A stretch of DNA of 64,000 bases from an uncultured Candidatus Saccharibacteria bacterium (GCA_964629815.1 CAZVTA010000001.1:253226-317225), one strand, 5' to 3'. Shown: positions 2,488 through 47,325, counted from the stretch's first letter. Numbers and translations: made by a program. The notes: a model not told the origin generated them from the sequence alone.

Positions 2488-3075
2488 CTATTTTAGGCTG
2501 GTGACAATTTTGTCGACGATGCCATACTTTTTGGCTTCTTCGGCAGTCATCCAGTAGTCTCGTTCCATATCTTCTTGAATGCGTTTAACTGTTTGGCCGG
2601 TATTCTTGGCCATAATCTCGTTCAGGCGGCGTTTGATACGTAACGACTCTTTGAGATCAATCTCCATATCGGTAACCTTACCCCTGGTACCGCTGCTTGG
2701 TTGGTGAACCATGACGGTAGCATTCGGTAGCGCAATTCGCTTACCCTTTGTGCCAGAGCTCAGTAAAAACGCGGCAGCCGAAGCTTGGATGCCTATACCT
2801 ACCGTCTGAATATCATTACTTACATACTGCATGGTGTCATAGATAGCGAGCGCATCGTAGACACTTCCACCCGGGCTGTTTATATAAAAGAATATGTCTT
2901 TTTTTGGATCTTCTGCATGCAAAAAGAGCAGCTGGGCAACAATGAGGTTTGCCGTGTGTTCTGTAACTGCATCGCCCAAGAAGATAATGCGGTCTTTTAA
3001 GAGGCGACTATAGATGTCAAATGCGCGCTCTATGCGGCCCTCTGTTTCGATAACGGTTGGAATAACTGTACTCAT
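2488..3075 (-). CDS. clpP: ATP-dependent Clp protease proteolytic subunit
   Basis: Translation [22 protein letters not shown]...INSPGGSV. Triad context is retained: Ser in [11 protein letters not shown], His in MVHQP, Asp in ERDYW. The ORF runs to a TTG at 3111, but ATG 3075 (MSTVIPTV) matches the family N-terminus and has TACACT 7 nt upstream. Confidence 0.93.
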
Positions 3076-3120
3076 ACCAATCAGTGTAACGACAAAATTG
3101 GCACTCGTCAAGCCAGAGTG

Positions 3121-3456
3121 CTAGCTACTTGGTTGAAGATGTCTGTTGTATGAAAGTTCGACAATTTTTGCTTTGTTTGCGTCAAAACGTGGGTCAACAA
3201 CAGCCCCACCCGCAACATCCGCAACGAACCGAATAGTAGCTTCTGCAGCTAGTTTTCCAATTTTGTCGTGGGTGATACCTTGTTCATGATGAATAAGGAG
3301 TGCTTCTCTAGTGGCCTTAAGCAATGCAACTTCATCGGGCAATAAGTCGCCTTCAAAGGGCTCACGTAGTTTGGCCTCTATAGCGGCTACTGACATATCC
3401 ATGTCGAGCCAATTCTCGAGTATCATTCCACCCTCTGGGTCTCTACTGGGTCTCAT
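3121..3456 (-). CDS. hypothetical 111-aa acidic/helical protein encoded between tig and clpP
   Basis: ORF with AAGGA 8 nt upstream of ATG 3456, overlapping the tig stop. It is tightly packed: 11 nt after tig and 9 nt before the clpP ORF. No recognisable motif. Confidence 0.6.
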   Translation of the reverse strand: MRPSRDPEGGMILENWLDMDMSVAAIEAKLREPFEGDLLPDEVALLKATREALLIHHEQGITHDKIGKLAAEATIRFVADVAGGAVVDPRFDANKAKIVELSYNRHLQPSS

Positions 3457-3467
3457 TTGTTCTGTCC

Positions 3468-4751
3468 TTATTTTGTAGCGTAGGCTACGAGTTTTTCAAT
3501 AATCTTTTCTGTGCGGATTCGAGCCGCAATGTCTTGGCGAGCTTCTGGTTTGTTGAGTTCTGCCTGCATACTTGGGTCTTGGTATTGGCCCTTAAGGAGT
3601 TGCATGCGGATTTCGAGCTCTTCAGGTGTAACCTCGACTTTTTCTTTGTCGCCAATCGCGCCAAGCATAACACCTATTTTTACTTGTCGCTCTGCTTCTG
3701 GTTGGTTGCGCTTTCGATGTTCTTCTTCGGTAACGCCTTCTTCTTTAAGATGATCTTCCCAGGTGGTTCCACGATACATAAGGTTTTGGCGCTCATCTTG
3801 TTCGATGCGCATAACTTGCTCGGTGATGATTGACTCTGGAATTGCTACTTCTGTTTTAGCTGCAATCTTATCGAGGAGTTTTTCTTGGAGTGTATTGTCA
3901 AGGTTTCGTTGTTTTTCTGCAGTAAGCTGAGTTTTAATGTCTGCTTTGAGTGATGCCAGATCTTTGAACGGGCCAGCCTTGGCTGCGAATGCATCGTCGA
4001 GCTTTGGCAACACCACTTCCTGGACTTTTGTTACGGTACAGGTGAAGGTGATTTTCTTGTTTTGGAGGGCACTGACACCGTAATCTTTAGGAAACGTTAG
4101 GGTAAAGGTTTTCTCTTCGCCCGCTTTGAGGCCTATTAGGTTTTCTTCGAAACCTGGGATAAAGGTTTTAGAGCCGAGTGCTAGGGGGTAATCTTTACCG
4201 TCGGCACCTTGTACAGGCTCACCCTTGCTATCTACACCCTTAAAATCAATCCAAACCTGGTCGCCGTCTTTAGCGGCTCGGTCGACATCGTTCTTTTCGG
4301 CTACTTGTTTTTGAAGATTAGTAAGTACTTCTTTTACTTCGTCGGCCGTAACGGCTGCTTTTTCTTTGGTAACCTTCATTTTGGTGTAATCTGGCAGTCT
4401 TACCTCACCAAGTACGTCAACAGTTATTTCGCACTCAAAGGTAGTAAACGGTACGAATTTTTTTAGGTTTACTTGAGGTTGGCCAGCTACACGCAAGTTT
4501 TCTTTGCGAACAACTTGCATATATGCATGGTTCAGCACTGTATCGATAAACTCAGACTGCAACATCTGTGGGTCAAGATGTTTTTCTACGAGGTTAAGAG
4601 GCGCTTTGCCTGCACGAAAACCAGCAATTTTGAGCGATGGAGAATTGAGCGATTGCACCACAGATTGCTTAATATCAGATAGAGTTTTGTCATCAGCCAC
4701 GACCGAAATCGTAACGTTGGTCTTTGAATTGTGGGTTAGTTTCATTTGCAT
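3468..4751 (-). CDS. tig: trigger factor
   Basis: 427 aa. Ribosome-binding signature GFRAGKAP near the N-terminus, central FKBP-like region, and typical length and order next to clpP. Confidence 0.92.
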   Translation of the reverse strand: MQMKLTHNSKTNVTISVVADDKTLSDIKQSVVQSLNSPSLKIAGFRAGKAPLNLVEKHLDPQMLQSEFIDTVLNHAYMQVVRKENLRVAGQPQVNLKKFVPFTTFECEITVDVLGEVRLPDYTKMKVTKEKAAVTADEVKEVLTNLQKQVAEKNDVDRAAKDGDQVWIDFKGVDSKGEPVQGADGKDYPLALGSKTFIPGFEENLIGLKAGEEKTFTLTFPKDYGVSALQNKKITFTCTVTKVQEVVLPKLDDAFAAKAGPFKDLASLKADIKTQLTAEKQRNLDNTLQEKLLDKIAAKTEVAIPESIITEQVMRIEQDERQNLMYRGTTWEDHLKEEGVTEEEHRKRNQPEAERQVKIGVMLGAIGDKEKVEVTPEELEIRMQLLKGQYQDPSMQAELNKPEARQDIAARIRTEKIIEKLVAYATK

Positions 4752-4797
4752 AGAACGCTAGTATACACCGGTACTGTCTTTTTTACCAGAGGTGGCA

Positions 4798-8027: not shown

Positions 8028-8053
8028 AAAAAAACCGCGATTGTCTCACGGTT
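8028..8053 (-). terminator. intrinsic terminator downstream of tRNA-Leu
   Basis: The minus-strand RNA reads AACCGUG-AGACAAU-CGCGGUU followed by a U run. That is a 7-bp stem including one G-U pair, a 7-nt loop, and 5-7 U. Confidence 0.6.
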
Positions 8054-8066
8054 CATTATAGCTGTT

Positions 8067-8151
8067 TGGTGCGGATGAAAGGACTTGAACCTTCACGCCT
8101 TGCGGCACTAGCTCCTAAGGCTAGCGTGTCTACCAATTCCACCACATCCGC
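8067..8151 (-). tRNA. tRNA-Leu (anticodon UAG), class II long variable arm, CCA encoded
   Basis: The reverse complement is GCGGATGTGGTGGAATTGGTAGACACGCTAGCCTTAGGAGCTAGTGCCGCAAGGCGTGAAGGTTCAAGTCCTTTCATCCGCACCA. Acceptor stem is GCGGATG/CATCCGC. Anticodon stem is CTAGC/GCTAG with loop CTTAGGA. T-loop is TTCAAGT. Confidence 0.92.
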
Positions 8152-8165: not shown

Positions 8166-8702
8166 TTACGATAAACGACGATAAAATACCAGCCGTGCAC
8201 CTGCAAATGTTTTATTTTTGACTTCTTGAAAATCAGCAAGATCTAATGTTGGCATGTCTGCAGGTATGCAAACAACTACAATGCCGTGGCTAACACAGTG
8301 CCGCGAGGCAATCTTGTTGAGGGTCGCTTCTGATACTTGGTCATGTGGTGGGTCGAGCAAAACTATATCGAACTGAAGCAGCTGATTATTGTCGGACCAA
8401 GAACTAACGTTGGCACGCACTGCTTTACAGGTATTTTGCAAACCTAATGATTGAATATTGGCCACTATTGTTTCGTATGCGTGCTTATCGACATCTATAC
8501 AGTACGCTGAAGCGGCACCTCGGCTAACAGCCTCGAACGCGAGCGCTCCGCTACCGCCGTACGCATCGAGCACCGACAAGCTAGTTATATCACCAAGCGT
8601 ATTGAAGAGTGCTGTTTTAACCCGATCTCCCATCGGGTGAGTACGATGCCCTTTTGGTGGCTGAAAGATTCGCCCGCTAAAAAGTCCTGCATTAATTCTC
8701 AT
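8166..8702 (-). CDS. rsmD: 16S rRNA (guanine966-N2)-methyltransferase RsmD family
   Basis: 178 aa. PTxDRVKxALFN-like RTHPMGDRVKTALFNTLG, SAM-binding LDAYGGSGALAFEAVSRGA, and the DPPH (DPPY-type) motif. Confidence 0.85.
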   Translation of the reverse strand: MRINAGLFSGRIFQPPKGHRTHPMGDRVKTALFNTLGDITSLSVLDAYGGSGALAFEAVSRGAASAYCIDVDKHAYETIVANIQSLGLQNTCKAVRANVSSWSDNNQLLQFDIVLLDPPHDQVSEATLNKIASRHCVSHGIVVVCIPADMPTLDLADFQEVKNKTFAGARLVFYRRLS

Positions 8703-9525
8703 GATTGGATTGTATTGGTTGAATCTTGGCTTCGATCAGTGCACCATACCATGCCAGGGTAACCATGTTAATGATGGTAGGGGCCAGTTTTTCGCGTACG
8801 TCGTAGGCGAGCTTTGTAGTCCAGCCTTTTTTATAGTAGCGGTCGTACATGTCTAAAATGGCAACTTCGCGAGCTGCTTTAATGAACGCCTGTGCAATTC
8901 CATCGTCTAGAAACTGCTGAATGCGGGCTGGTGTAGGTACGCAGTCGCCAAATGTCATTGGTTTGATGATAGAGGCAATACCGAATTCGAACATGCCATG
9001 GGTACTAATAAGCCCTTTGGGCCCCCACATTTTCCAGTTGTTTTTTACGAGTTCGCGTTTGGTTTCGCCCGGAATAATGATCTTATCTTTTATGGTAGTG
9101 CGAGTTTCGATACCTTCACCGCGTAGTTCACTCAACTTTTCTTCGTAGGGGTAATGGTGTGCTGGAGTCAAACCATCAACAATAGCATGCGCCAGCCACG
9201 CTGCTTCGAATGCGACTTTTTCGTGGTTTTGCTTCTTTAGTTCGACAACCAGTTGCTTGTAATGGTTCGTGATTAGCTCTACAAGCTGTGAATCGTCATC
9301 GTCGAACGGGCTGTAATAATGCCATGGTTCGTCGACTGCGGGGCTCTTACGCTTAATACCATCGGGTCCGTTTTTGCCTTCGAAGTGTAATATGCGGCCA
9401 ATTTTTGGAAATAACGTATCGTTATCGATGAGCTTAGTAAGGTGGCGACGCGCAACACGGTCAATTTTTTGGTGTGCGCCCATAATGCGCCCCGAAGCTT
9501 TCGTAAGTGTGGTTCCAGAATACAT
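8692..9525 (-). CDS. hypothetical protein, possible zinc-dependent phospholipase C / P1-nuclease-fold protein
   Basis: 277 aa. WLAHAIVDGLTPAHHY resembles the H..D...P.H metal-binding motif of Zn-dependent PLC-fold proteins. No signal peptide is visible. The function call is weak. Confidence 0.55.
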   Translation of the reverse strand: MYSGTTLTKASGRIMGAHQKIDRVARRHLTKLIDNDTLFPKIGRILHFEGKNGPDGIKRKSPAVDEPWHYYSPFDDDDSQLVELITNHYKQLVVELKKQNHEKVAFEAAWLAHAIVDGLTPAHHYPYEEKLSELRGEGIETRTTIKDKIIIPGETKRELVKNNWKMWGPKGLISTHGMFEFGIASIIKPMTFGDCVPTPARIQQFLDDGIAQAFIKAAREVAILDMYDRYYKKGWTTKLAYDVREKLAPTIINMVTLAWYGALIEAKIQPIQSNHEN

Positions 9526-9553: not shown

Positions 9554-11584
9554 TTAGTCTAGTCGAGTAACCGTTTGAAGCTGCGCAATTCGTTTAGATA
9601 ACTGCTTATAGTGTAGCAGATTATCCCGCCTAAGGAATGCTTCTGCGGCCTGTTGTGCTTGCTCAATCAGATGCGTATCGGTTAGCTGTGCAATTCGTAA
9701 ATCGAGCGTGCCGTGTTGGCGCGTGCCGTAAATTGCACCCGGGCCGCGTAGTTCTAGGTCGTACTCGGAAAGCTTAAAGCCGTCGTTGGTTGATTCGATG
9801 GCTCGCATACGTGCAGATGGGGCTTTTGAGTCGGTCATCATAAGATAACAGTAGCCCTGGTGTTCGCCACGCCCTACTCGCCCACGTAATTGATGTAGTT
9901 GGGCTAAACCAAACCGGTCGGCGTGCTCTATAAGCATAACGGTAGCATTTGGCACATCTACACCAACCTCGATAACCGTGGTGGCAACAAGAATATCAAG
10001 CTCGTGGTCTTTAAAGGCTTGCATTGTTTGTTGCTTGTCCTCAGCTTTCATCTTGCCGTGCACAAGCCCCACCCTAAACTTTTTGAATTGTTTCTTAAGC
10101 GTTTTATAGTGTGACTCTGCAGAAATAATTTTGTCATCAGTGCCATCTTCTATAGTTGGGCATACCACATACATCTGCCTGCCGTTTTCGAGTTCATGCT
10201 CAAGCGTGCCGTACAGCGCTGGGCGAGAGTTTGGCGATGCAATTTTTGTAATTATCGGTAGTCGATTTGCGGGTTTGGTACGAATAAGACTGATATCGAG
10301 CTCGCCATAAAGCGTCAGGGCAAGACTTCGCGGTATTGGTGTCGCTGTCATAGACAAAACATGCGGCATATGCCCAGCTTTTTTCTGCAATGTATTGCGC
10401 TGCTCTACGCCAAAGCGGTGCTGTTCATCAATAACAACAAGACCAAGCGAGTGCATATTGATTGAAGACTGGATAAGGGCATGGGTACCAATGATTATAT
10501 TAACATCGCCGGCAGTAATTCGTGCTTCTATGCGTTTTCTTTCGGCTTGCTTCATGCTTCCTACAACCAGACCAACTAAATGCTCATATCCGGTACCTTG
10601 CAACATGATATAGATGGTATGAGCATGCTGTTTGGCTAATAGTTCGGTTGGTGCCATAAGCGCAGTCTGAAAGCCCGCATCGGCGACCATAAGCGCAGCT
10701 AATGCGGCGACTACAGTCTTGCCTGAGCCTACATCACCTTCTACGAGCCGATTCATGCCATGCGTTTTTTGAAGGTCGGTATAGATTTGCCACAATACTT
10801 TGCGCTGGTCGTCGGTTAGGCTAAAAGGCAAACTGGCCACCGCTTGCTGTGCAAGTATGGTATTAAACGGAATACGCGGTGCTACCAACTTGTGTTGTTT
10901 TTGTTTCGTGAGCTTCGCTGCCAGAACGAGTTCGAATACTTCTTCAAAACCAAGCCTAAAGCGAGCCTTGTCTATATCTGTCTGTGTATTCGGAAAATGT
11001 ATAGCAGTTAGTGCATCAAAATGCGATACAAGCCCAAACTGTTCAACGAGCCACGCAGGAAGCGGTTCATAGGCTTTTACCTTTTGCGTTGCGTTATGAA
11101 TAACTTTGCGTAGTTCGGTAGATTTTAATCCCTTTATCTCGCGGTATACAGGCACAATACGGGCCGTGTTGAGTTGAAAGTCGCTGACGAGCTCGAGCGA
11201 AGGGTTTGTGATTGAAAAGCGACCGCGTCGTAATTCGAACAGCCCAGACAGATAATATGTTGTGTGGGGTTTTATTTGCTTGGCACGATAGGCCTGATTA
11301 AACCACACAACCCGTACGCTGCCCGTGTCGTCAGAAAAAACACCTTCTGTTACGTGCATGCCTCTACGCACATAGCGTGCATTAAGCGATGCAAGTGTAC
11401 CTTTTAGTGTTACCGTGCCAGGTTTTATGGTTGCGACCGTATGTACTGCCGAGAAGTCGTTATACTTACGAGGGTAAAAGCGCAGTAAGTCATCTACCGA
11501 TGCAATGCCGGCATGAGCAAGTTTTTGCATAAGTACTGGCCCAACACCAGAAACATCGCTTAATTCTATCCCAGGTTCTTGCAT
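9554..11584 (-). CDS. recG: ATP-dependent DNA helicase RecG
   Basis: 676 aa. N-terminal wedge/OB region, Walker A GDVGSGKT, VIDEQHRFG (DEQH box), and a C-terminal helicase domain. Confidence 0.95.
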   Translation of the reverse strand: MQEPGIELSDVSGVGPVLMQKLAHAGIASVDDLLRFYPRKYNDFSAVHTVATIKPGTVTLKGTLASLNARYVRRGMHVTEGVFSDDTGSVRVVWFNQAYRAKQIKPHTTYYLSGLFELRRGRFSITNPSLELVSDFQLNTARIVPVYREIKGLKSTELRKVIHNATQKVKAYEPLPAWLVEQFGLVSHFDALTAIHFPNTQTDIDKARFRLGFEEVFELVLAAKLTKQKQHKLVAPRIPFNTILAQQAVASLPFSLTDDQRKVLWQIYTDLQKTHGMNRLVEGDVGSGKTVVAALAALMVADAGFQTALMAPTELLAKQHAHTIYIMLQGTGYEHLVGLVVGSMKQAERKRIEARITAGDVNIIIGTHALIQSSINMHSLGLVVIDEQHRFGVEQRNTLQKKAGHMPHVLSMTATPIPRSLALTLYGELDISLIRTKPANRLPIITKIASPNSRPALYGTLEHELENGRQMYVVCPTIEDGTDDKIISAESHYKTLKKQFKKFRVGLVHGKMKAEDKQQTMQAFKDHELDILVATTVIEVGVDVPNATVMLIEHADRFGLAQLHQLRGRVGRGEHQGYCYLMMTDSKAPSARMRAIESTNDGFKLSEYDLELRGPGAIYGTRQHGTLDLRIAQLTDTHLIEQAQQAAEAFLRRDNLLHYKQLSKRIAQLQTVTRLD

Positions 11585-11590
11585 ACCTGT

Positions 11591-11596
11591 AGTATA
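11591..11596 (-). promoter_or_regulatory. -10 box TATACT 6 nt upstream of the recG ATG (leaderless candidate)
   Basis: The minus strand reads cTATACTacaggtATG. The spacer has no SD. Confidence 0.45.
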
Positions 11597-11606: not shown

Positions 11607-12380
11607 TTAGGCTTTTCGAATTAGAAAGAATACACTTGGGCCAAAATAAATACGCGAGAGCACTTCTTGAGTAAGATCTTCAATCTTGAGCATAGAATTA
11701 ACTGACAAGAATTTCTTGAGTCCTGGAGAACGCAGGTTGGAAACAGACAATGTTTTTTCTACGCGAAGCCCGGCGTGCGCCAGTTGTTTTATGACCGTTT
11801 TTGGGTTATGGTTTACAAACGCAATTTCGTCGTCTCGTTTGTTCTTTTCTGATCGGATATCTACTGGTTCCACAGGAAGTTTCACAAACTTAGCAAGGTG
11901 CTTAAGCCGGTTTCGAGCATGCGCATAGTTTGCGACTTCTAGAATAATGTAGCCATCATCTGATAAGACACGCTTCAGCTCGCTAAACTCTACACTTGGG
12001 TCCGGGAGGTGATGCATAACACGAATCATGGTAATTAAGTCTACTGACTTATCCTTTAGGTCAAGTTTATCGGCTTGTGTTAACTTGCGGTCGATTTCTG
12101 GATGATCTTGCAAAAAGTCCTTAGCAATGTCGAGCTGCTGCTTGCTTGGCTCGGCTAAAGTTACTTTATCTGCATATTTCTCTAGGAAGACGCATAATCT
12201 ACCGTAACCACCGCCAATATCTATGGCGTGCTTGAAGTGTTTGCCGTCTAATAGTTTACGGATTGCAAGACGTTCTGCTTCGTTTTCGTAGTCGCGTCCG
12301 TCCCAGTAATGGAGGTAGTTGTGATTAGGGTCGTTATATTGATCTGCTTTTTTAACTTTAGATGTACTTGTTTTTGACAT
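11607..12380 (-). CDS. class I SAM-dependent methyltransferase
   Basis: 257 aa. IDIGGGYGRL motif I, DLITMIRVMHHLPDP. Confidence 0.8.
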   Translation of the reverse strand: MSKTSTSKVKKADQYNDPNHNYLHYWDGRDYENEAERLAIRKLLDGKHFKHAIDIGGGYGRLCVFLEKYADKVTLAEPSKQQLDIAKDFLQDHPEIDRKLTQADKLDLKDKSVDLITMIRVMHHLPDPSVEFSELKRVLSDDGYIILEVANYAHARNRLKHLAKFVKLPVEPVDIRSEKNKRDDEIAFVNHNPKTVIKQLAHAGLRVEKTLSVSNLRSPGLKKFLSVNSMLKIEDLTQEVLSRIYFGPSVFFLIRKA

Positions 12381-12387
12381 GAGTGTT

Positions 12388-12396
12388 AGTATACCA
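12388..12396 (-). promoter_or_regulatory. extended -10 TGGTATACT 7 nt upstream of the methyltransferase ATG 12380 (leaderless candidate)
   Basis: The minus strand reads TGGTATACTaacactcATG. Confidence 0.5.
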
Positions 12397-12405: not shown

Positions 12406-13662
12406 TTATGAAATTTTTACCAACATACTGGTGTTTTTTCCGCGGCGAACGATGATACGTCCATGTATTGCATCGTGCACAGAAAGTGACGTTTGGCTTA
12501 TTGGAATTTGCTGTCCATTAACATAGATAGCATTACCTTCAAGAAAACGCCTCGCTTCTGATTTAGAGCTTGCAAGCTCACCCTCAACCAAGATCGATGC
12601 AATATCTACTTCGCCCTTTGCAGTCACGGTATTGAGTTCATCTTCGAGGAGTTTAAAATCGGCCTCTTCAAGGTCGATATATGACCCTGATCCGAATAAT
12701 ACTTCACTTACTCTTTCGATGCTTTTTGCCGCCGCCTTGCCGTGCACAATAGATGTTACCTCGTAAGCTAATCGTTTTTGTGCCACGCGGTCACCTTTAT
12801 TGTGAGCAAATTGCTTTTCAATTTCTGAAATTTCTGTTTCATCTAGCAGCGTATATATCTTTAGGTAGTCGACGACGCCAGCATCATCTAGATTGAGCCA
12901 GAACTGATAGAACTGATATACGCTTGTGAGGTTTTCGTCGAGCCACACAGCACCTGCTTCACTTTTGCCAAACTTAACTCCCGTAGTCTTGTTGACAACT
13001 AGCGGTGCAGACCAGATATGTGCTTCTCCTCCTGCGATTCGACGAATAAGTTCTACGCCAGCAATGCTGTTGCCCCACTGATCGGCCCCACACACCTGCA
13101 ACGATGCGCCGTGTGTTTTATAAAGATGCAAAAAGTCGTAGCCCTGTATGAGCGAATAGCTAAACTCAGCATAGCTAATACCATTGCCACTCTCTGACAA
13201 ACGAGATTGAACAAACTCGCGTCCAAGCATCTGTCGCATAGGCACGTGCTTGCCGACATCTCGTAAAAATTCGAGGTACCCAAGTCCCTTAAACCAATCG
13301 TAGTTATCGACAAGCTCAAATTCCATATCGTTAAAAAGCCGTTTGTATTGCGCTGCAATGCCTGCCTTGTTCTTGTCGACTTCGTCTTTGGTCTTAAGCT
13401 GCCGCTCTTCTGATTTACCATCTGGGTCGCCAATAAGTCCAGTTGCACCACCAACCAACAAAATTGCTGTATGTCCGTGCGCTATAAAATGACGCACCAT
13501 CATTGCTGTTGCCAAGTTGCCGATAGTCATCGATGGTGCACTTGGGTCAACTCCAAAATAAAACACAAACTTCTTTTTATCTAATTCGCCCGGGTCAGCA
13601 AGCGTCGTTTGGTTTACGAATCCACGCCAAACAAGCTCTTCGCTTAAGGTTTTTGTACTCAT
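12406..13662 (-). CDS. tyrS: tyrosine--tRNA ligase (HIGH signature replaced by TIGN)
   Basis: 418 aa. GGATGLIGDP, YSLIQGYDF, GADQWGN, KFGKS, and a C-terminal S4-like domain. It aligns with E. coli TyrS along its whole length. Confidence 0.95.
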   Translation of the reverse strand: MSTKTLSEELVWRGFVNQTTLADPGELDKKKFVFYFGVDPSAPSMTIGNLATAMMVRHFIAHGHTAILLVGGATGLIGDPDGKSEERQLKTKDEVDKNKAGIAAQYKRLFNDMEFELVDNYDWFKGLGYLEFLRDVGKHVPMRQMLGREFVQSRLSESGNGISYAEFSYSLIQGYDFLHLYKTHGASLQVCGADQWGNSIAGVELIRRIAGGEAHIWSAPLVVNKTTGVKFGKSEAGAVWLDENLTSVYQFYQFWLNLDDAGVVDYLKIYTLLDETEISEIEKQFAHNKGDRVAQKRLAYEVTSIVHGKAAAKSIERVSEVLFGSGSYIDLEEADFKLLEDELNTVTAKGEVDIASILVEGELASSKSEARRFLEGNAIYVNGQQIPISQTSLSVHDAIHGRIIVRRGKNTSMLVKIS

Positions 13663-13668
13663 ACAGAC

Positions 13669-13674
13669 AGTATA
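13669..13674 (-). promoter_or_regulatory. -10 box TATACT 6 nt upstream of the tyrS ATG (leaderless candidate)
   Basis: The minus strand reads TATACTgtctgtATG. Confidence 0.45.
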
Positions 13675-13734: not shown

Positions 13735-13743
13735 TGGTATACT
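13735..13743 (+). promoter_or_regulatory. extended -10 TGGTATACT of the PBP gene (leadered, SD AAGGAG at 13759-13764)
   Basis: Read directly: tttTGGTATACTatatgccagaaccatAAGGAG. Confidence 0.5.
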
Positions 13744-13777
13744 ATATGCCAGAACCATAAGGAGTAGAAGTTAACAT

Positions 13778-18090: not shown

Positions 18091-18108
18091 ACTGCCTAGT
18101 GTATCAGA

Positions 18109-31531: not shown

Positions 31532-31538
31532 GCTACAT

Positions 31539-31574: not shown

Positions 31575-31580
31575 TACAAT
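31575..31580 (+). promoter_or_regulatory. -10 box TACAAT 7 nt upstream of the trmH-like ATG 31588 (leaderless candidate)
   Basis: Reads gcgTACAATacataccATG. Confidence 0.45.
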
Positions 31581-31587
31581 ACATACC

Positions 31588-32085
31588 ATGCAATCGATTG
31601 TACTTATTGCGCACAATTTGCGTAGCACACACAATGTCGGCTCGTTATTACGTACGGCTGAAGGACTCGGCATTACTCACGTGTATCTTACCGGTTATAC
31701 GCCTTATCCAACCCAAGCCAACGATACGCGGCTCCCTCACGAATCCATTAAAATAACAGAAAAAATCCACAAAACTGCCCTGGGAGCAGAAACTTTACAG
31801 CCTAATACACACTTCGCCGACTTGCACGACGCTATATCAAAACTCAAAGATGACGGTTATTCAATTATTGGCCTTGAACAGTCCGATACTGCTATAAAAC
31901 TACCCGATTATCAGCCTCCAAAAAAGGTGGCCTTGCTTCTGGGAAGCGAGGTAGATGGTATCGCTCAACAAGACCGCTTGCTGTGTGATGCGTTACTAGA
32001 AATTCCAATGTTTGGCAGTAAAGAGTCATTCAATGTCGTGCAAGCTGCCGCAATGGCTCTCTATCACTGCAAATTCATGGCATAA
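31588..32085 (+). CDS. SpoU/TrmH-family RNA 2'-O-methyltransferase
   Basis: NVGSLLRTAEGLG, LLLGSEVDGI and IPMFGSKESFNVVQAAAMALY SPOUT motifs. The start at MQSIVLIAHN is preferred. Confidence 0.85.
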   Translation: MQSIVLIAHNLRSTHNVGSLLRTAEGLGITHVYLTGYTPYPTQANDTRLPHESIKITEKIHKTALGAETLQPNTHFADLHDAISKLKDDGYSIIGLEQSDTAIKLPDYQPPKKVALLLGSEVDGIAQQDRLLCDALLEIPMFGSKESFNVVQAAAMALYHCKFMA

Positions 32086-32111: not shown

Positions 32112-32117
32112 TATAAT
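32112..32117 (+). promoter_or_regulatory. -10 box TATAAT 6 nt upstream of the CAP-domain gene ATG 32124 (leaderless candidate)
   Basis: Reads ttTATAATacttgcATG. Confidence 0.45.
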
Positions 32118-32123
32118 ACTTGC

Positions 32124-33356
32124 ATGTCACACAACCGTGCCCAGCTCAAGCGTCATGGGCACCATCAAAAACGCAACCAACACTTTTTAAAGGTCTATAC
32201 ACCATACTTACCTTTACTGGCAATTCCGTTCATTGCATTAGGCATATTTAGAAATCTCACCACGCAAGCTGTCCACAATAGTCAAAATAATGTACTTGCT
32301 TTTGCAACCAATATGAGCCCTACTGATCTGCTTACGGCTACTAATAGCCGTCGCTCTGCGGCTAACGTCGGTTCACTTACAATCAACTCCAAGCTCGCCA
32401 GTGCAGCACAGGCAAAAGCGAACGATATGGCACAAAAGAACTATTGGGCTCATGTTAGTCCTGACGGTTCTCAGCCATGGAGCTTCATATCAAATGCAGG
32501 ATATAGCTACAGTAAGGCAGGTGAAAATTTGGCATGTGGCTTCGATACAAGCATGAACACTGTTACCGGCTGGTACAACAGCCCGACACACAAGGATAAC
32601 ATGCTTAAAAGTGACTATACCGAAGTCGGTTTCGGCATCGTGAACGCAGCTGATTATAATTGTGGCGACCTGGATAAAATGCAACAAACGATTATTGTTG
32701 CCATGTACGCCCAGCCTTATACCAAAGCGTCGTCTCCCCAGAGCACCAGTCAAAAAACTTCTCCTACAAGCGCAAAAGCAACCACAACAGCAAAGCCAAC
32801 CAACGTACCTACAACCAGTACCGTTAAGATTACCGTACTTGACGAAAGTGGCAAACCAGCAAAAGGCGTGCTCGTAACACTTCACTCGGAGCCTAAGACC
32901 GCCTATACAGACGAGAACGGCGTTGCAACATTCACCAATGTAGAAGACGGAGATCATACGGCACGTTTTGAACTTAATGGCATCAAAAACGAACAAAAAC
33001 TATCCGTTTCTGCTATGACAAAGCCTGAAACAGCAATTAGCATACAACAACCAAAAACTAACACGAACCAAACATCAACTACGGATGGTTCATCAAATTC
33101 TGCAACGAGTAAATCTTCATCCATATCAAAAGGTCAAATCTTAACTAATGGAAAGACACCATGGGTAAGTGGCGTCTTAGTATTATTTATAGTGTTTGCT
33201 ATTACTTTTCTCGCTACAAAACACACGGTTGCACTACACAAATTTATCGTTAAAGGCGAACGATATATACTACACCACAAGCTACTCGATGCACTTATTA
33301 TTGCGCTTGTCTTAGGAGCAGTATTACTCAGTAGAACTGTCGGTTACATTTTCTAG
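32124..33356 (+). CDS. membrane-anchored CAP/SCP (PR-1-like) domain protein with a carboxypeptidase-regulatory-like beta-sandwich and a Ser/Thr/Pro linker
   Basis: 410 aa. N-terminal TM segment. CAP motifs YWAHVSPDG, GENLACGF and GWYNSPTHKDNML. VKITVLDESGKPAKGVLVTLHSE...GVATFTNVEDGDH. C-terminal TM segments. Confidence 0.8.
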   Translation: MSHNRAQLKRHGHHQKRNQHFLKVYTPYLPLLAIPFIALGIFRNLTTQAVHNSQNNVLAFATNMSPTDLLTATNSRRSAANVGSLTINSKLASAAQAKANDMAQKNYWAHVSPDGSQPWSFISNAGYSYSKAGENLACGFDTSMNTVTGWYNSPTHKDNMLKSDYTEVGFGIVNAADYNCGDLDKMQQTIIVAMYAQPYTKASSPQSTSQKTSPTSAKATTTAKPTNVPTTSTVKITVLDESGKPAKGVLVTLHSEPKTAYTDENGVATFTNVEDGDHTARFELNGIKNEQKLSVSAMTKPETAISIQQPKTNTNQTSTTDGSSNSATSKSSSISKGQILTNGKTPWVSGVLVLFIVFAITFLATKHTVALHKFIVKGERYILHHKLLDALIIALVLGAVLLSRTVGYIF

Positions 33357-37772: not shown

Positions 37773-39233
37773 CTATTGTTGCAGTTCTTTGTCAATAAGC
37801 TTGCGGGCAAGCTCTGGATTTGCAGCACCTTTACTTGCTTTCATAACCTGGCCAACTAAGAACCCATATACCTTTGTCTGGCCTGCCTGGATATCCGATA
37901 CAGCCTGAGGGTTTTCTGATACCACCTGTTTAACTATTTCTGTTAAGACTGTCTCATCTGAAAGCTGTATGAGCCCATGGTCAGATGCAAATTGCTCTAT
38001 ATTATCGGGTAGATCACTACTCGCCAGTAAATCTGTGATAAGCTGTTTGGCATTGGTTGAACTAAGCTTACCTGAAGAAACTAGGCCATGCACCGAAACA
38101 TAGACGCTCTTTCGTTCATCATAGGATAGACACGTTCGCTGTGCGTCTGTATTCATGGGAATTTCTACATTGATTATCCAGTTTGCCACCGCTTTGGCGA
38201 GTTCAAGGTCATGTTCTAGGTCTTGGATTATTGCAAGATATGACAGCGTATCTCGTTCTACATCCGCATGAAGTAATATGTGCATTTGCTGCTCATTAAG
38301 ACCGATAGCAGAAAGTATCTTTCGCCAGTCATCCGGCAATTGGGGCATTGAACCAACGATACGATCAATATAGGCATCGTCCAACACTATCGGTGGCAAA
38401 TCTGGGTCTGGCATGTATCGATAGTCATGCGCCTGTTCTTTACCTCTTTGAGAAACAGTTTTTTGCTTTGATTCGTCCCAGCCGCGTGTTTCTTGAACGA
38501 CTTTCTCACCTTTCTCCAGAAGCTTGGTTTGACGTTCAATTTCATACTGGGCCGCTCGTTCAACAGCCTTAAATGAGTTCAGATTCTTTGTTTCCGTGCG
38601 GGTGCCAAGGTTATCATCATTGCTCACCGACACATTAACATCAAAGCGCATATTTCCATGGTACAGATCGCAATCTGACACACCTGCATATTTCATCAAT
38701 AAATATAGCTCTTCCGCATATGCACGAGCCTCGGCAGCAGAGTGCATTTCAGGCTTGGAGACAATTTCGAGCAGCGGTGTACCAGCACGGTTCAAATCCA
38801 CAAGCGTGTAATCATGCCCAGTTGGGTGTGTATTCTTTCCTGCGTCCGCCTCAAGATGAGCCTCATGTATCCGAACGCTGTGCTGCTTGCCGTTGACAAC
38901 AAAAACAACTCGTCCATCCGTAATTATCGGCATATTAAACTGGGTAATCTGATAGCCCATGGGTAGATCAGGATAAAAATAGTGTTTTCGATCAAATGCG
39001 CTATTCTTCTGCGGCTTCGTTCCAAGCGCATATGCCGCTCGTGTCGCAAACTCAACGGCTTTTTCATTTAAAACTGGTAGCGCACCGGGCAAGCCAAGAC
39101 AGATGTGACTAATAAGGGTATTTGGCGCTGCACGGCGCGCATCATTATCAATCGCAGCAAAAAGTTTTGTTTTTGTCTTAAACTGGACATGGCACTCAAT
39201 ACCAATGGTTGGCATATATTCACTATTTGCCAT
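37773..39233 (-). CDS. gatB: Asp/Glu-tRNA(Asn/Gln) amidotransferase subunit B
   Basis: 486 aa. PTIGIECHVQFKT, the GatB cradle domain, and a YqeY-like C-terminal tail. AGGAG lies 9 nt upstream. Confidence 0.95.
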   Translation of the reverse strand: MANSEYMPTIGIECHVQFKTKTKLFAAIDNDARRAAPNTLISHICLGLPGALPVLNEKAVEFATRAAYALGTKPQKNSAFDRKHYFYPDLPMGYQITQFNMPIITDGRVVFVVNGKQHSVRIHEAHLEADAGKNTHPTGHDYTLVDLNRAGTPLLEIVSKPEMHSAAEARAYAEELYLLMKYAGVSDCDLYHGNMRFDVNVSVSNDDNLGTRTETKNLNSFKAVERAAQYEIERQTKLLEKGEKVVQETRGWDESKQKTVSQRGKEQAHDYRYMPDPDLPPIVLDDAYIDRIVGSMPQLPDDWRKILSAIGLNEQQMHILLHADVERDTLSYLAIIQDLEHDLELAKAVANWIINVEIPMNTDAQRTCLSYDERKSVYVSVHGLVSSGKLSSTNAKQLITDLLASSDLPDNIEQFASDHGLIQLSDETVLTEIVKQVVSENPQAVSDIQAGQTKVYGFLVGQVMKASKGAANPELARKLIDKELQQ

Positions 39234-39576
39234 TTTCTAATACTCCTAAGTCTCGTAGTGCTTGACGAAAACCGATTAACGAACGCTTGACGTCTGCCTC
39301 TCTGAGGCGTTTTACAGAATCATCTCGTAGCTTCTTGGCAAAGTTATGCGCAAACCAGACGGCATCGTTATCGGTAATTTCTTTTTGGGCCGCAACCAGT
39401 CGTTCGCCCATACTTTTTCCTTTGAATCGCTTCTTTTTTAAGATCAGCTCGAGCAATTCGTCGGCTTGAGTAACAGCCTGAGCCCATGTCTCTCTGTTTG
39501 CACAATAACGCTGCAAATCCTTCCACTCCTGCTGATATTTCTCAAGTTTCAATTTTCTCCGCGGTAAGAACCTCAT
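39223..39576 (-). CDS. hypothetical 117-aa helical basic protein embedded between gatA and gatB
   Basis: ATG 39576 overlaps the gatA TGA (ATGA). GAGGAG lies 8 nt upstream, inside gatA. The stop overlaps the first 11 nt of gatB. No family recognised. Confidence 0.65.
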   Translation of the reverse strand: MRFLPRRKLKLEKYQQEWKDLQRYCANRETWAQAVTQADELLELILKKKRFKGKSMGERLVAAQKEITDNDAVWFAHNFAKKLRDDSVKRLREADVKRSLIGFRQALRDLGVLENGK

Positions 39577-40997: not shown

Positions 40998-41287
40998 TCA
41001 ATCACTCGCTTTACTTTTATGTACCGTTCTTCGGTTGCTGGCACATTTTGCAGTAGGTCGTCTGGTGACGCTTGATACGACTTAACCTTGTCAGGACGCA
41101 TTACATTTCGAAGACCTGTTACCTGAGAAGTCATTTCAAGCCCACTAACATCAACCGACTGCAGCTGCTCTATATATTGCAATATTGCATCAAGTTCTTC
41201 AGTGAACTCTTTAACTTCTTTATCCGTTAACGACAGCTTCGCAAGGCGTGCCAATTTTAATACATCGTCGCGTGTAAGTTTTGTCAT
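40994..41287 (-). CDS. gatC: Asp/Glu-tRNA amidotransferase subunit C
   Basis: 97 aa. LTRDDVLKLARLAKLSLTDKEVKEFTEELDAILQYIEQL is typical GatC. There is a 4-nt overlap with gatA. Confidence 0.9.
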   Translation of the reverse strand: MTKLTRDDVLKLARLAKLSLTDKEVKEFTEELDAILQYIEQLQSVDVSGLEMTSQVTGLRNVMRPDKVKSYQASPDDLLQNVPATEERYIKVKRVIE

Positions 41288-41307
41288 TTGCAGATAATTA
41301 TAGAAGA

Positions 41308-42006: not shown

Positions 42007-44240
42007 TATTTCTTACCCTTCCCAATCTTTAGTTTCTTGCGGCTCGAAGACTGACTTGCTAGCAGATCCTGCAGGTTCATACCTCTTGACTCTGTGGCAT
42101 TTGATCCCAAAGTCATGTCTGCAGCCACGTGTTGTGCTTGTTGAGCAGGTGGATTATGCACAATTTCAGGATTTCCTTCAAAAGCATGTACAGTTTGCTC
42201 ACCCATTTGTTGCGCTTCAGTAGGTGTTGCAGGCTCTAATATCTCTTTGACAAGCTGATCAGTTGGACTCATAGCGGTTGCAGACATTTCTGTTGGTGTG
42301 GGACCGGGCTCAAGGTGCGGTAGTGCAGGATTCATAACAGGTGATAAATTTGCAGCCGCCTGTTCAACAAATTTATCTGGCAACTGTTGCGGTTGATTGT
42401 ATACTTCAAGATCTTCTACCTTTACATTTGCAGACGGTAAAGCGTCGAGCGTACGCGCTTTGACGCACGGGAGCATCTGCCCATCGCTACTTAAGCGCAA
42501 AAAACACTCACGGGAGTTAAGCGCCGTAAGCATTTGAACGCGCACATCGGACTGTTTTAAGCCCTTTGCCTTTTCTTGCTCGAGTATCTCTTTAGGGATT
42601 TCTATCGTCAGATTACCTTCAAGCGCACGCGCATCTTCTTCGGAAACACGAAATACATAGTAGTTATAAACGTTCGTAAAGATAGCTTCTTGCAATGACT
42701 TCTCGATCTGGCCAAAGTATTGCTGAGTCAGAAATACATAGAGATTGTACTTTCTTGCCTCCGCAAGAATGCTCGCAAGCGCTGGGTTCTGTACAACCGA
42801 TACTTCATCAACAATAAGAATTATCTTTTCATTAAAAGCACGGGCTTGGGCGAGCAAAAATATCTGCTGAATGAGCAAACCAGCGACTGTCTTAACAACC
42901 TTCTCTCCCATACTTACCTTATTGAGTGAAAATACCGTCAAAAAGTTATTGCCAATAATCTTGCCTAACGATGCACCTTCGTCACCAGTCTTTGCGAGAG
43001 ATGGCTGCATCTGCATCTCATCAACAAGAGAGATAATGGGGACAATCGATTCGTTGTAGTATTTTGTACGCAGTTCATTAAAGTCGGCTCCAAAGAACTG
43101 AACGATATTTGCAGGTACATACCCGTCAACATGCTGCAGCAGTTGGTTCCTAAACTCTACATCAGTCACAAAGCGCTTGAGACTATCCAGAGACATTGTT
43201 TGCGCCGTCATTAGTACATATAAACTGAAACGAAGTAATCGTTCGACCTTCGGGTTAAACTGATCGGCTAAAAGGGATTTGAACAGCGTGCCCGTAAGCT
43301 CTGTTGCCGCTGATATATCCGTACCTGCGCCACCAAACAATTCTGTCGCTTGGTCATCGCCTTTGAAATTTATGACAGTTGAGTTTGGTATGCCTGCAAA
43401 ATCCTGTTCAAGTGAGGCATGAGGGTCAATAACAACTATCCGATAATTATTCTGCAGACCACCGGATTTACTCAAACGGTCTACAAATAACGTAATGAGT
43501 TTTGATTTACCGCTACCGCTCGCGCCAATAATAAAAGAGTGTTTGTCAAAATCGTAGGCATTAATTGGCAGGTAGTAGTTTTTAGGCAAGAACGGAAATG
43601 TATCGACCTCAAACACAGCGTTCACATTATCACTTTGCATAATGTGCAGTGCCTTTTGTATGTCGAGATACTTTGGCTGCTTTTTTCGCATGTATTTAGT
43701 ATTGGCAACAAAATCTACCGCTAATAGATGCGCCGGGAGCATAAAAAGGGTCTTTTTCGCGACACTGTGCTGACCAGCCGTATTCTTGAAATACATTTTG
43801 AGGCGAACATGTGCTTTTTCAACGTTCAGTGTCCGGATAGTAAACTCAGCAAATTCAAGCTCTTTTGCACGCTTTACTTGATACTTCTCCTTGAGATCCA
43901 AAATATTACCACCACCAACATACTGAACAAAACGCTCTACGCTTGATGCTTGCGGTAGTTTTACGAGACTATGGTCAATTGGCCGTAACACAACACCGTC
44001 AAGGTTATTCGAAAGAAGTCCAACATCTTTATTGGTACCAACCCAGTATCGCACGGTGCTTTTTTCGATAACAACAATTAATTTCCAGCTATTTAGAAAC
44101 CCTATGTATTGAGACAACCCTAGGACTATTGTCTTCCAGGCAGCAGCATCGAGTTGATCTCTCAACAGATACAATTCGTACCAATGTTCGTACTCAAGCG
44201 TACGATTGTTTTGCATGAGCTTTATTATATACATTTCCAT
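42006..44240 (-). CDS. FtsK/HerA-superfamily P-loop ATPase (VirB4/DUF87-like) with a disordered Pro/Gln-rich, Lys-terminated tail
   Basis: Walker A GASGSGKS, Walker B IILIVDE, and [13 protein letters not shown] (RKYN...TQ, as in VirB4-type ATPases). No TM segment. The true start may be ATG 44216 (MQNNRT), which has TATAAT 7 nt upstream. Confidence 0.8.
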
Positions 44241-44281: not shown

Positions 44282-45358
44282 ATGAGCATTATAGGGATAC
44301 GCATGTCGACTTTAGAAAAATACCCCGAAACCCAAGCAGAAACTCCGGTGCTCGATGTTCCAATGGATATAGTTCTAGACTATAAGACCGATATTGTACG
44401 GCCCGAGACTCATTCTCACTACACCGTACGTACCGATGGCGCAACCATGTCAGACGGGCATAGCTACGCGGTCGTAAAAGGGATACCAAAACACCCAATC
44501 ACCCCACTAACTATTGGCTTTACGTCTGCTTGGTGGACTAGTTCTCGGGGGCATAATCGTAGGACATTAGAGCATTTTACTCGCCTGGGCATTCCGACAA
44601 TATTGATTGGCGCCGAAGGCAGTTATCGACCGAGCGGCCCAAACGGCATCCCCCTACCAAAGGAACCTATCAGCCTCACACGCAGTGCTCATAGTTTTCA
44701 CGAAATCCTAAACATCATTGCAAGCTCAGAAGACCTTTCTACGCAAACAAGCACTAGAGATATGGTAATACTTGGCGAATCTAGAGGTGCAATGATCGCT
44801 AAAGGCATCATTGCAATCGCAAATGGTTATGGAAGAAATGTTGTTTACGCGGATGTGACTGCTCCCTGTTTTCCTGAAGCTTTTCAACCGAAAGATATAT
44901 TAAAACTCATGAAGCAATTGTATGGCGAACGGAATGCACTTGCTACACTAGCAGGCAATCTCACACTGCGCAGACTCGTACACTATCCGGCAACGCTAGA
45001 TTTACACCCAGAAGCTGTATCTGCCAACATACATACGTTTGGCCCCCTATTCAGCGGCGAAGCAGGAGAGCTCGCTAAAGCGATCGACAGCGACTTTCCC
45101 ATGCACATAACAACATTCAGCGACGACTTTGCAAGTATGCCAAAACGGTGGGCCCGTATATATGCAAATCACCCGAATGTACGTATCAAGCAAATTGACG
45201 GAGCACACCTTACGATAGCCCACCCACGAACATTGGAGCATATTGAAGGACGACTTTTGGGTCTATTTAGTGAAGTTGATAAACACGGGCCAGACGCAAG
45301 TAAGATTGATTATTCTCGAGTTCACCTAGACGATGGCGAATCGCCGCCTACATTTTAG
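44282..45358 (+). CDS. alpha/beta-hydrolase-fold protein
   Basis: 358 aa. Nucleophile elbow GESRG and a candidate His in [15 protein letters not shown] lies upstream. Confidence 0.65.
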
Positions 45359-47312
45359 ATTCGATATCGGCAATAATATCACGAAGTTCTGCAGCCTTTT
45401 CAAACTCAAGGTTAGCGGCAGCAATATCCATTTGTGCTGTGAGATCCTTAACCAAGTGCTTATACTCATCTTTTGGTATCTTTTTAAGGTCAACCTTGGC
45501 CTTCTTAGCCTCCTCGGGCAAGTCTGGTCTGAGACCCTTATCAACGACCTTGGAGACACCTGTGGGAGTGATGCCGTGTTTTGTGTTGTACGCTTCCTGA
45601 ATCGCGCGTCGGCGATTGGTTTCATCGATGGTACGCTGCATACTGCCCGTAATACTATCACCATACATAATGACCCGTCCTGATTCGTGTCGAGCTGCTC
45701 GACCAACCGTCTGAATAAGTGCTTGTTCACTTCTTAAAAACCCTTCTTTATCTGCATCAAGGATCGCAACCAGCGACACTTCAGGCAAGTCCAGTCCCTC
45801 GCGTAACAGATTAATACCTACTACTACGTCGTAGACTCCTAGTCGCAGATCGCGCAGAATATCGGTTCTATCAAGCGTATCGACATCACTATGAAGATAC
45901 GTTACCTTAATTTTCATCTCTTCTAGATATTCAGTCAGATCTTCAGCCATACGCTTAGTCAGCGTCGTTACTAACACGCGCTGACGTTTTTCAATGGTAG
46001 CGCGAATTTCGGCGATCAGATCATCAACCTGCCCTTTTGTTGATCTTACCTCTATGGGTGGGTCAAGCAGTCCTGTTGGACGTATCACCTGCTCTATTGG
46101 CTTGGGACTACGACTTAGCTCATACTGCGCAGGAGTAGCCGACACATACACCACTTGGTTCACATGTTTTTCGAATTCAGTAAATGTTAATGGACGATTA
46201 TCGAGCGCGCTTGGCAACCTAAACCCATGTTCTACAAGCACTTCTTTGCGTGCCCTATCGCCGTTATACATACCTCGAATCTGCGGAATAGTCATATGTG
46301 ACTCGTCGATAAACAATAAGTAATCGTCAGGATAGTAGTCGAGTAGCGTTGCCGGTTGCTCACCAGGCTCTCTGTTGGTAAGGTATCGGCTGTAGTTCTC
46401 TATTCCTTTTACGAAACCTGTTTCTTCGAGCATTTCGAGATCGAACTTGGTACGCTGTTCAAGTCGTTGAGCTTCGAGCAGCTTGCCTTCTGCTCGAAAT
46501 AACGTCAAGCGTTCTTGTAGTTCCTGTGCGATATCGGTTAAAGCAAACTTGAGTTTCTCTTGTGGGGTAACATAGTGCGAGCTTGGAAAGATCTTATGAG
46601 AATCTTTTCGTGCTAAGACCTCACCGGTTAGTGGCTCTATTTGTGTTATCTGCTCAATTTCATCACCAAAAAATTCAACTCTATAAGCTAGCTCTTCGCC
46701 GGCCGGAAAAATATCCACCACATCGCCGCGAACCCGAAAAACACCACGATGAAAATCAATATCATTTCGTTGATATTGTATATCTGTTAGCTGTCGCAAT
46801 AGCTTATCTCGCACCCGACGCTCTCCTACTCGTAGTTCGACTGCCAAACCATCATAATCTTCTACCGAACCGATACCGTATATACAGCTGACACTTGCAA
46901 CAATAATAACGTCTTTGCGGCTCAGCAATGCGTCTGTGGCAGCGTGTCGAAGACGATCTATTTCTTCATTAATTTGGCTATCTTTTTCAATATAGGTGTC
47001 GCTCCGCGCAATATACGCTTCTGGCTGATAGTAATCAAAATAGCTTACAAAGTAATGCACAGCATTTTCCGGGAAAAACTTTTTAAACTCACTGTAGAGC
47101 TGGGCTGCGAGCGTTTTATTGTGGCTTAAAATAAGCGTTGGTTTTTGTATGCGCTCAATAACATTTGCCATGGTAAAGGTCTTTCCTGATCCCGTAACCC
47201 CAAGCAACGTCTGTTCCTTTGTTCGAGACTCAAGACCCTTAACCAATGCCTCAATAGCTTGCGGCTGGTCGCCGCTTGGCTGAAAATCACTTCGAAGAAC
47301 AAACCGACTCAT
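45348..47312 (-). CDS. uvrB: excinuclease ABC subunit B
   Basis: 654 aa. Walker [16 protein letters not shown], helicase motifs, and a C-terminal UVR domain ([10 protein letters not shown]). Confidence 0.95.
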
Positions 47313-47319
47313 ACAGAGT

Positions 47320-47325
47320 ATTGTA
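47320..47325 (-). promoter_or_regulatory. -10 box TACAAT 7 nt upstream of the uvrB ATG (leaderless candidate)
   Basis: The minus strand reads gtTACAATactctgtATG. Confidence 0.45.

Follow-up and report, generated by a model that had tools for sequence, protein, structure and literature searches.

Start-codon-adjacent extended -10 promoters point to a leaderless-type gene architecture in Candidatus Saccharibacteria

Genes and upstream boxes in the window

We analysed a stretch of 64,000 nucleotides (nt; hereafter the window, GC content 44.8%) from an uncultured Candidatus Saccharibacteria bacterium (GCA_964629815.1, CAZVTA010000001.1:253226-317225), in which many genes carry a hexamer resembling a bacterial -10 promoter box just upstream of the start codon. 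The closest relatives of its radA (63–73% identity) were nearly all metagenome-assembled genomes (MAGs) of Candidatus Saccharibacteria/Saccharimonadales, and the closest relatives of its uvrB in metagenomes shared 75–83% identity. A first-pass annotation had listed 18 such genes, with the box 6–9 nt before the ATG and with no Shine-Dalgarno (SD) sequence, and had proposed widespread leaderless transcription. All 18 hexamers, ATG coordinates and spacers (the nt between box and start codon) proved exact when the sequence was read again, and a box was carried by ~20 of the ~58 genes of the window.

On the minus strand, a spacer of 6 nt (N6) was found at rsmD (8700–8714, TACAAT, ATG 8702), recG (11582–11596, TATACT, ATG 11584) and tyrS (13660–13674, TATACT, ATG 13662). 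The spacer is 7 nt at clpP (3073–3088, TACACT, ATG 3075), a methyltransferase gene (12378–12396, TGGTATACT, ATG 12380), radA (18088–18106, TGATACACT, ATG 18090), the gene of a HExxH protein (19087–19102, TATAAT, ATG 19089), pilB (31529–31544, TATACT, ATG 31531), the gene of a coupling-protein/HerA-like ATPase (44214–44229, TATAAT, ATG 44216) and uvrB (47310–47328, TGTTACAAT, ATG 47312); the sequences given for the methyltransferase gene, radA and uvrB are extended -10 elements. Spacers of 8 nt precede tig (4749–4765, TATACT, ATG 4751), the gene of a 171-aa protein (oxy171; 22868–22884, TACACT, ATG 22870) and a second methyltransferase gene (mtase2; 29886–29924, ATG 29888), the last with a full sigma-70-type promoter (TTGACA-N16-TAGAAT), and spacers of 9 nt precede clpC (21574–21591, TGATACTAT, ATG 21576) and gatC (41285–41302, TATAAT, ATG 41287). 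The plus strand contributes the malic enzyme gene (27957–27971, TATACT, N6, ATG 27969), a SpoU/TrmH-like gene (trmH; 31575–31590, TACAAT, N7, ATG 31588) and the gene of a CAP-domain protein (32112–32126, TATAAT, N6, ATG 32124). Beyond these 18, additional candidates were an M1 aminopeptidase gene (24421–24436, plus strand, TGCTAAACT, N7, ATG 24434), a 160-aa open reading frame (ORF) with its start revised to an ATG at 27867 (27865–27881, minus strand, TAAGGT, N8, with TTGTAC 17 nt upstream) and, as a weak case, rpe (54258–54272, minus strand, TACACT, N6, ATG 54260), whose start overlaps the rpiB stop and whose box lies within rpiB.

The gene names were borne out by Pfam for clpP, tig (trigger factor), rsmD (Cons_hypoth95), recG, tyrS, radA, clpC, malic enzyme, pilB (T2SSE), SpoU/TrmH, CAP, gatC, uvrB and the two class-I methyltransferases. 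The type IV coupling TrwB/HerA-like ATPase was matched below the Pfam cut-offs only, and the Pfam search gave no match for the HExxH and 171-aa proteins. With the SD core scored as GGAG, GAGG or AGGA at SD distance, the 18 boxed genes were free of it, as had been claimed; the exception is the HExxH gene, where a GGAG lies just 2 nt before the ATG.

The boxes of recG, the methyltransferase gene at 12380, radA, the HExxH gene, gatC and uvrB lie in 15–25 nt spacers right after the upstream stop (22 nt at recG, 18 nt at radA, 15 nt at the HExxH gene, and 20 nt at uvrB). The first-pass annotation had placed the box inside the upstream gene in several cases, and this applies to 1 of the 18 only, namely rsmD, a weak candidate whose box is within the upstream ORF 8692–9525 and whose ATG overlaps the same ORF. 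The others sit in a 15–60 nt spacer after the upstream stop, and the part that overlaps the upstream gene is the -35 region, not the box. Five of the 18 genes are divergent from their upstream neighbour (tyrS, malic enzyme, pilB, trmH, and the ATPase gene), tyrS from a PBP gene. pilB and trmH form one divergent pair, and their shared spacer (31532–31587, 56 bp) holds two -10 boxes back to back; 30 bp separate them, and each has a 7-nt spacer to its ATG.

Positional enrichment in the window

To avoid circularity, unbiased starts were defined by greedy ORF calling, with the first ATG of an ORF as its start, and boxes were scored as TAYAMT (TA[CT]A[AC]T) or as the looser TANNNT. TAYAMT at spacer 6–9 preceded 14 of 56 first ATGs (25%) vs. 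18 of 2202 other ATGs (0.8%; Fisher p=2e-15), and 3 of 421 in-frame internal ATGs. Three of the 18 boxed "other" ATGs are alternative starts proposed by the first-pass annotation (27969, 31588, and 44216), each opening a long ORF. The hexamer by itself was not enriched in the window (140 sites vs. 153.8 in shuffles). The spacer histogram of these 140 sites peaked at 6 nt (9 sites) and 7 nt (13 sites) over a background of ~2.7, and control trinucleotides in place of ATG gave no such peak. In dinucleotide shuffles, TAYAMT-N7-ATG was found 3.05+/-1.68 times (13 observed) and TAYAMT-N6-ATG 2.85+/-1.66 times (9 observed), and none of 100 shuffles reached the observed count in either case. Starts of long ORFs accounted for 14 of the 22 N6/N7 sites. 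The enrichment of -10-type words that the first-pass annotation had expected relative to shuffled and internal-ATG controls was thus present at spacers 6–7, with SD words forming the other class.

Distribution across Saccharibacteria and other phyla

We pooled the window with 42 Saccharibacteria loci (545 first-ATG starts). TANNNT was present at spacer 6–9 in 174 of these starts (32%) and the SD core in 90 (17%), and both occurred together at a single start (1/545). Per position, TANNNT reached 12% at spacer 6 and 10% at spacer 7, compared with 2–3% at neighbouring upstream positions and ~1% before internal ATGs. The box frequency varied with gene context: 57% among co-directional genes with 15–60 nt spacers, 27% among divergent genes, and 7% where genes overlapped.

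The pattern was replicated in an independent set of 80 metagenome loci (1077 starts), in which a TANNNT box preceded 221 starts (21%), compared with 4.3% for internal ATGs (p=8e-64); in this set, TAYAMT was most frequent at spacer 6. The control loci, of similar GC content and from other phyla (Clostridia, Chloroflexota, Omnitrophota and others; 361 starts), showed 0.6–1.4% per position at spacers 6–9, no peak, and a strong SD signal. At the level of predicted promoters, the leaderless-type architecture characterises Saccharibacteria as a lineage and is not a quirk of the window. Six Peregrinibacteria loci (L048, L064, L067, L068, L074, and L075) had a TANNNT spacer-6 peak (17% of 58 starts) with SD almost nil, and the architecture may thus occur in the wider candidate phyla radiation (CPR).

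Promoter character of the motif

Alignment of the 174 boxed starts on the box gave the consensus T-n-T-G-n-T-A-t-A-c/a-T, with a weak TTG ~17 nt upstream of the box. The TG at -15/-14 was present in 70 of the 174 (40%) vs. 6.9% of all TANNNT sites (p=3e-35), and 4 of the 18 genes listed initially have this extended -10 TG, a signal that is read on DNA by sigma. When 6-mers in the region from -20 to -1 were ranked without a prior motif, only -10 words (TATACT, TATAAT, TAAACT, TACACT, TACAAT, TAGAAT, and TGCTAT) and SD words (GGAGAA, AGGAGA, and AAGGAG) were enriched, and the -10 words formed a second positional cluster ~28–38 nt upstream of starts. A pyrimidine occupied position -1 in 68% of boxed starts vs. 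52% of SD starts (p=0.01) and preceded the ATG in 17 of the 18 genes, in agreement with the tendency of RNA polymerase to initiate at Y(-1)R(+1).

Good -35 hexamers were found at clpP (TTGACG, 3106–3111, 17-nt spacer) and mtase2 (TTGACA, N16), with 3/6 matches in the remaining genes. The best -35 score averaged 3.33 vs. 2.87 in the background (p=0.02), most hexamers being weak. Taken together, the motif is best described as a predicted sigma-70-type, mostly extended -10 promoter and not as an RNA element.

Conservation of the box and of start codons

Upstream regions of orthologues had diverged apart from the box, which was kept at a fixed distance from the start. TANNNT at spacer 6–9 was found before the ATG in 48/62 orthologues of uvrB, and in 30/34 of radA, 15/19 of the M1 aminopeptidase gene, 20/29 of the HExxH gene, 14/26 of recG and, at the homologous internal ATG, 10/12 of ORF 27867. 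For gatC and the methyltransferase gene at 12380, the counts at this spacing were 38/57 and 10/23, and rose to 55/57 and 16/23 at spacers 6–11. All three orthologues of the malic enzyme share its first residue and have TACAAT or TACACT at N6–7, and the two ATPase orthologues likewise keep both the box and the start position. The single clpP orthologue found, in L004, also begins at the matching ATG, with TATAAT at N7, and one tig orthologue has TAGACT-N8. No orthologues of oxy171, mtase2, pilB, trmH or the CAP gene were among the fetched loci, so these genes are outside the conservation counts.

Among the matches listed for uvrB that lack a boxed ATG, 10 of 11 have TGnTACAAT or TACACT followed by N6 and GTG at the homologous position (L094, L097, L107, L109, L110, L111, L115, L122, L129, and L144). 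The arrangement therefore tracks the start codon, whichever codon is used, and uvrB transcripts in these loci are predicted to begin with GUG. More generally, TAYAMT boxes preceded 26 of 448 GTGs upstream of the first ATG vs. 4 of 5099 internal GTGs.

The boxes had also been taken to settle ambiguous start codons, and independent support for this was obtained for clpP, malic enzyme, trmH and the ATPase gene. At clpP (3075), the alternative TTG at 3111 falls within an operator-like repeat (see below) and the orthologue begins at the box-adjacent codon as well. In trmH (31588), the SpoU alignment begins at residue 4, and the Trigger_N (from residue 1 of tig), RsmD, SpoU and Rpe profiles all align from residues 1–5 of the box-adjacent starts. 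Residue 1 falls at the same codon in orthologue alignments of radA, uvrB, gatC and malic enzyme. On this evidence the longest-ORF starts of clpP, malic enzyme, trmH, the ATPase gene and the 27867 ORF are wrong. The longest-ORF start of pilB (box-adjacent start 31531) is probably wrong as well.

Shine-Dalgarno class, operons and heat-shock operators

The existence of a second, SD-led class without the box was upheld by conservation in orthologues of nusA, gatA, gatB, the ORF inserted between gatA and gatB, and the PBP gene. nusA (24302–24315, minus strand) has AAGGAG 5 nt before its ATG and no box, and its orthologues have an SD in 22/25 and a box in 0/25 cases. Within the gat cluster, gatC heads the order gatC-gatA-insert-gatB, and the operon-internal gatB (39231–39247, minus strand) has AGGAG followed by ATG. 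An SD precedes gatA in 35/47, gatB in 28/40 (box 0/40) and the insert in 29/47 orthologues. The gatCAB genes therefore show a leaderless-type first gene and SD-led internal genes, as in textbook group C of the GeneMarkS-2 classification. The insert itself is a 117-aa ORF (39223–39576, minus strand) with its own SD, and it occupies the same position in 47 related loci.

The PBP gene (13738–13780, plus strand) serves as a leadered comparison, with a TGGTATACT promoter ~34 nt upstream, a GGAG SD and an ATG at 13778. TTTGcTATAAT ~30–35 nt upstream together with GGAG is conserved in ~30 orthologues. The gap from SD to ATG in this gene is unusually long (~13 nt) and is likewise conserved in ~30 orthologues.

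Perfect cores of an inverted repeat (GCACTC-N9-GAGTGC) of the controlling inverted repeat of chaperone expression (CIRCE) type immediately precede the -10 boxes of clpP (3101–3121) and clpC (21600–21620, flanks TAGCACTC...GAGTGCTAG), with 3 matches in the window vs. 0.15 expected. The CIRCE/HrcA operator consensus at heat-shock gene promoters is TTAGCACTC-N9-GAGTGCTAA, and the sequence suggests that the clp genes are under HrcA-type control. The operator would be placed over the promoter because there is no 5' untranslated region (5'UTR) to carry it. At both clpP and clpC, the -35 TTG is embedded in the spacer of the repeat. CIRCE is retained upstream of related clpC/clpP orthologues (L001, L004, L011, L025, and L032), and the clpC orthologues that share this upstream context (L001, L011, L025, and L032) all retain the box. 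In many other relatives (L002–L026), clpC has a tandem "ATGATG" start after a G-rich or SD-like stretch, which replaces the box and CIRCE.

An Rfam scan of the window gave a single match, one tRNA (8070–8151, minus strand), and therefore no known leader or riboswitch accounts for the upstream regions. A terminator-like hairpin follows this tRNA at 8032–8054.

Interpretation and competing explanations

The motif, its position, its TG extension, its conservation and its phylogenetic distribution are read directly from the DNA, and the transcription start site (TSS) and the mode of translation initiation are deduced from them. Since a -10 box stands 6–9 nt before the start codon and no SD is present, the mRNAs probably begin at the start codon. 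We consider it likely that the boxed genes represent a bacterial leaderless gene architecture of the GeneMarkS-2 group C type and that this is a lineage trait of Saccharibacteria, and the proposal of a widespread leaderless-type architecture was supported by every sequence-level test that we ran (position, TG, conservation, and control phyla). In the proposed mechanism, sigma-70-type, mostly extended -10 promoters with a weak or absent -35 would lie 6–7 (up to 9–11) nt upstream of the start codon, and RNA polymerase would start on the first base of the start codon (A in ATG, G in GTG) or 1–3 nt before it. The resulting mRNAs would have neither a 5'UTR nor an SD and would be translated from the 5'-terminal start codon, a mode of initiation that is established in Actinobacteria and Deinococcus. 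Other genes, including the operon-internal gatA and gatB, would use a canonical SD. Given a compact genome with promoters placed in 15–60 nt spacers after the upstream stop, many co-directional genes would own a promoter.

Two of the initial proposals hold in part. Transcription starts at or within 2 nt of the ATG are consistent with spacers of 6–7 nt, and the genes with spacers of 8–9 nt (tig, clpC, oxy171, mtase2, and gatC) probably carry leaders of 1–3 nt. Gene-by-gene promoters in place of operons are in line with the many co-directional genes that have their own box, but operons exist as well (gatCAB).

Our interpretation needs to be read with caution considering the observations that weigh against it. 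Spacers of 8–11 nt imply leaders of 1–4 nt for some genes. A scan of the window for the full -35/-10 consensus was not enriched (25 vs. 33.5 in shuffles) and recovered, among the boxed genes, only clpP and recG, so the -35, which is weak, is not the informative element. rsmD is doubtful because just 4/29 orthologues retain the box and because its start codon overlaps the upstream ORF, and rpe, with a box in 6/28, likewise has its box inside and its start overlapping the upstream gene. For tyrS and clpC, the box stands at spacer 6–9 in 11/30 and 10/29 orthologues, respectively; it lies further upstream in other tyrS orthologues. Both genes change architecture in many relatives, so that a leaderless-type gene in one member of the phylum can have a leadered orthologue in another. 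Neither box nor SD is present at about half of the pooled starts, partly through crude start calling. Finally, a search for terminator-like hairpins between co-directional genes found none, so read-through and nested transcripts are likely.

This last point leads to the view that the boxes are real promoters, yet most protein is made from read-through polycistronic mRNAs, the leaderless transcripts being minor, supplementary or regulatory. SD-less cistrons would then be translated by termination-reinitiation or by 70S scanning over the 15–25 nt co-directional spacers, and the short, hairpin-free spacers, together with the overlap of rsmD and rpe with the upstream stop, are in keeping with it. 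We regard this as unlikely, given that boxes occur at a similar rate before divergent genes, which read-through does not reach, that the conserved distance is from box to start and not from stop to start, and that overlapping pairs, the likeliest candidates for coupling, mostly lack boxes. It could also be argued that the motif acts on RNA, as an A/U-rich non-SD initiation element in leadered or polycistronic mRNAs like that of Bacteroidota group B, considering that it sits at a distance typical of a ribosome-binding site (RBS), that it and the SD are mutually exclusive, and that SD usage is low. This is very unlikely in our view: the motif matches the sigma-70 -10 consensus with a six-fold enrichment of TG at -15/-14, SD-led genes have identical TGnTATAAT sequences 30–35 nt upstream, there is a weak -35 TTG (and a full TTGACA-N16-TAGAAT in one case), CIRCE operators abut the box, and the use of a canonical anti-SD is evident from the enriched SD words.

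A chance or compositional origin (AT-rich intergenic DNA, the TA of stop codons, or the picking of starts) has the appeal that 6 of the 18 starts had been chosen with the help of the box and that TANNNT is common (~7% per 4-position window). We reject it as hardly credible, as the first-ATG test avoids such choices, the observed counts went unreached by shuffles, the peak is limited to spacers 6–7, control phyla of similar GC content show no peak, and the replication set repeats the pattern. A stop-codon TA could produce the motif only at an intergenic distance of 9–12 nt, and this artefact was rejected because the box rate is highest in 15–60 nt spacers.

Comparison with known systems

In group C, a Pribnow box lies 6–8 nt from the starts of leaderless first genes and other genes have an RBS, 25–50% of transcripts are predicted to be leaderless, and the group includes 90% of Actinobacteria and 97% of Deinococcus-Thermus (PMC6028130). 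The box spacing in Saccharibacteria is the same as in group C members such as Mycobacterium tuberculosis and Deinococcus deserti, with 32% of pooled starts boxed and SD elsewhere, and both ATG and GTG serve as the predicted 5'-end start. Both codons are also used at the 5' end of leaderless mRNAs in mycobacteria. Saccharibacteria differ from group C in belonging to the CPR/Patescibacteria, in the prominence of the extended -10 TG (40%), and in predicted promoters that are often squeezed into 15–25 nt spacers after the upstream stop. The T-n-T-G-n-TATAAT-like consensus with a weak -35 also resembles the extended -10 (TGn) sigma-A promoters of Gram-positive bacteria, in which TRTGn constitutes the "-16 region". 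In Firmicutes, however, such promoters normally drive leadered SD mRNAs, whereas the discriminator in Saccharibacteria runs into the start codon.

In archaea, leaderless genes (GeneMarkS-2 group D) also have mRNAs that begin at the start codon, as predicted here, with SD used for internal operon genes, but their TATA/B recognition element (BRE) box lies ~26 nt upstream (PMC6028130), compared with ~10 nt for the -10 box in Saccharibacteria. Low SD usage and an A/T-rich signal near the start are shared with Bacteroidota (group B), where the motif is no promoter and precedes every gene, those inside operons among them (PMC6028130). By comparison, internal genes of Saccharibacteria are SD-led, and the motif in this lineage combines the -10 consensus with the TG extension.

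The phenomenon is classical and not a new mechanism, and its occurrence in this lineage appears to be unreported. Our search of the accessible literature on leaderless genes and SD in Saccharibacteria, CPR and Patescibacteria found no report of leaderless prevalence and no title or abstract describing leaderless genes in these lineages, and the co-occurrences of terms that we examined were reference lists or unrelated remarks only. A paper on CPR ribosomes discusses loss of the anti-SD for some Parcubacteria only (PMC9297842), and a 2025 promoter survey that derived 188 TM7x TSS from RNA-seq coverage noted only a variable distance from the -10 to the TSS (PMC12641261). A TM7x transcriptome preprint contained no TSS or promoter analysis, and a broad search on transcription starts and promoters of N. 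lyticus gave nothing further. Automated annotation with GeneMarkS-2 may already model this architecture silently.

Implications

For annotation, start prediction in MAGs of Saccharibacteria and CPR should use a leaderless-aware model. For genetics, the promoter consensus TnTGnTAtAcT and an expression design without a 5'UTR are offered to the newly tractable Saccharibacteria systems. With regard to genome organisation, promoters in 15–25 nt spacers imply nested transcription units and not classical operons. Our results would add a CPR phylum, one with reduced ribosomes, to the Actinobacteria and Deinococcus-Thermus as lineages with a leaderless-rich architecture, and they are relevant to the question of whether this mode of initiation is ancestral or has arisen repeatedly through genome streamlining.

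It is possible, and we propose this tentatively, that leaderless initiation from an extended -10 is the commonest recognisable mode of first-cistron expression in Saccharibacteria, and possibly in other CPR (e.g., Peregrinibacteria). If this is true, CPR would be a third major lineage of bacteria whose transcriptome is rich in leaderless mRNAs, a feature so far undescribed. Seen alongside the reduced ribosomes of these bacteria and their few ribosome-biogenesis factors, it would suggest a simplified initiation regime, perhaps of an ancestral, Terrabacteria-like kind, and one that would resemble the regime of the actinobacterial hosts.

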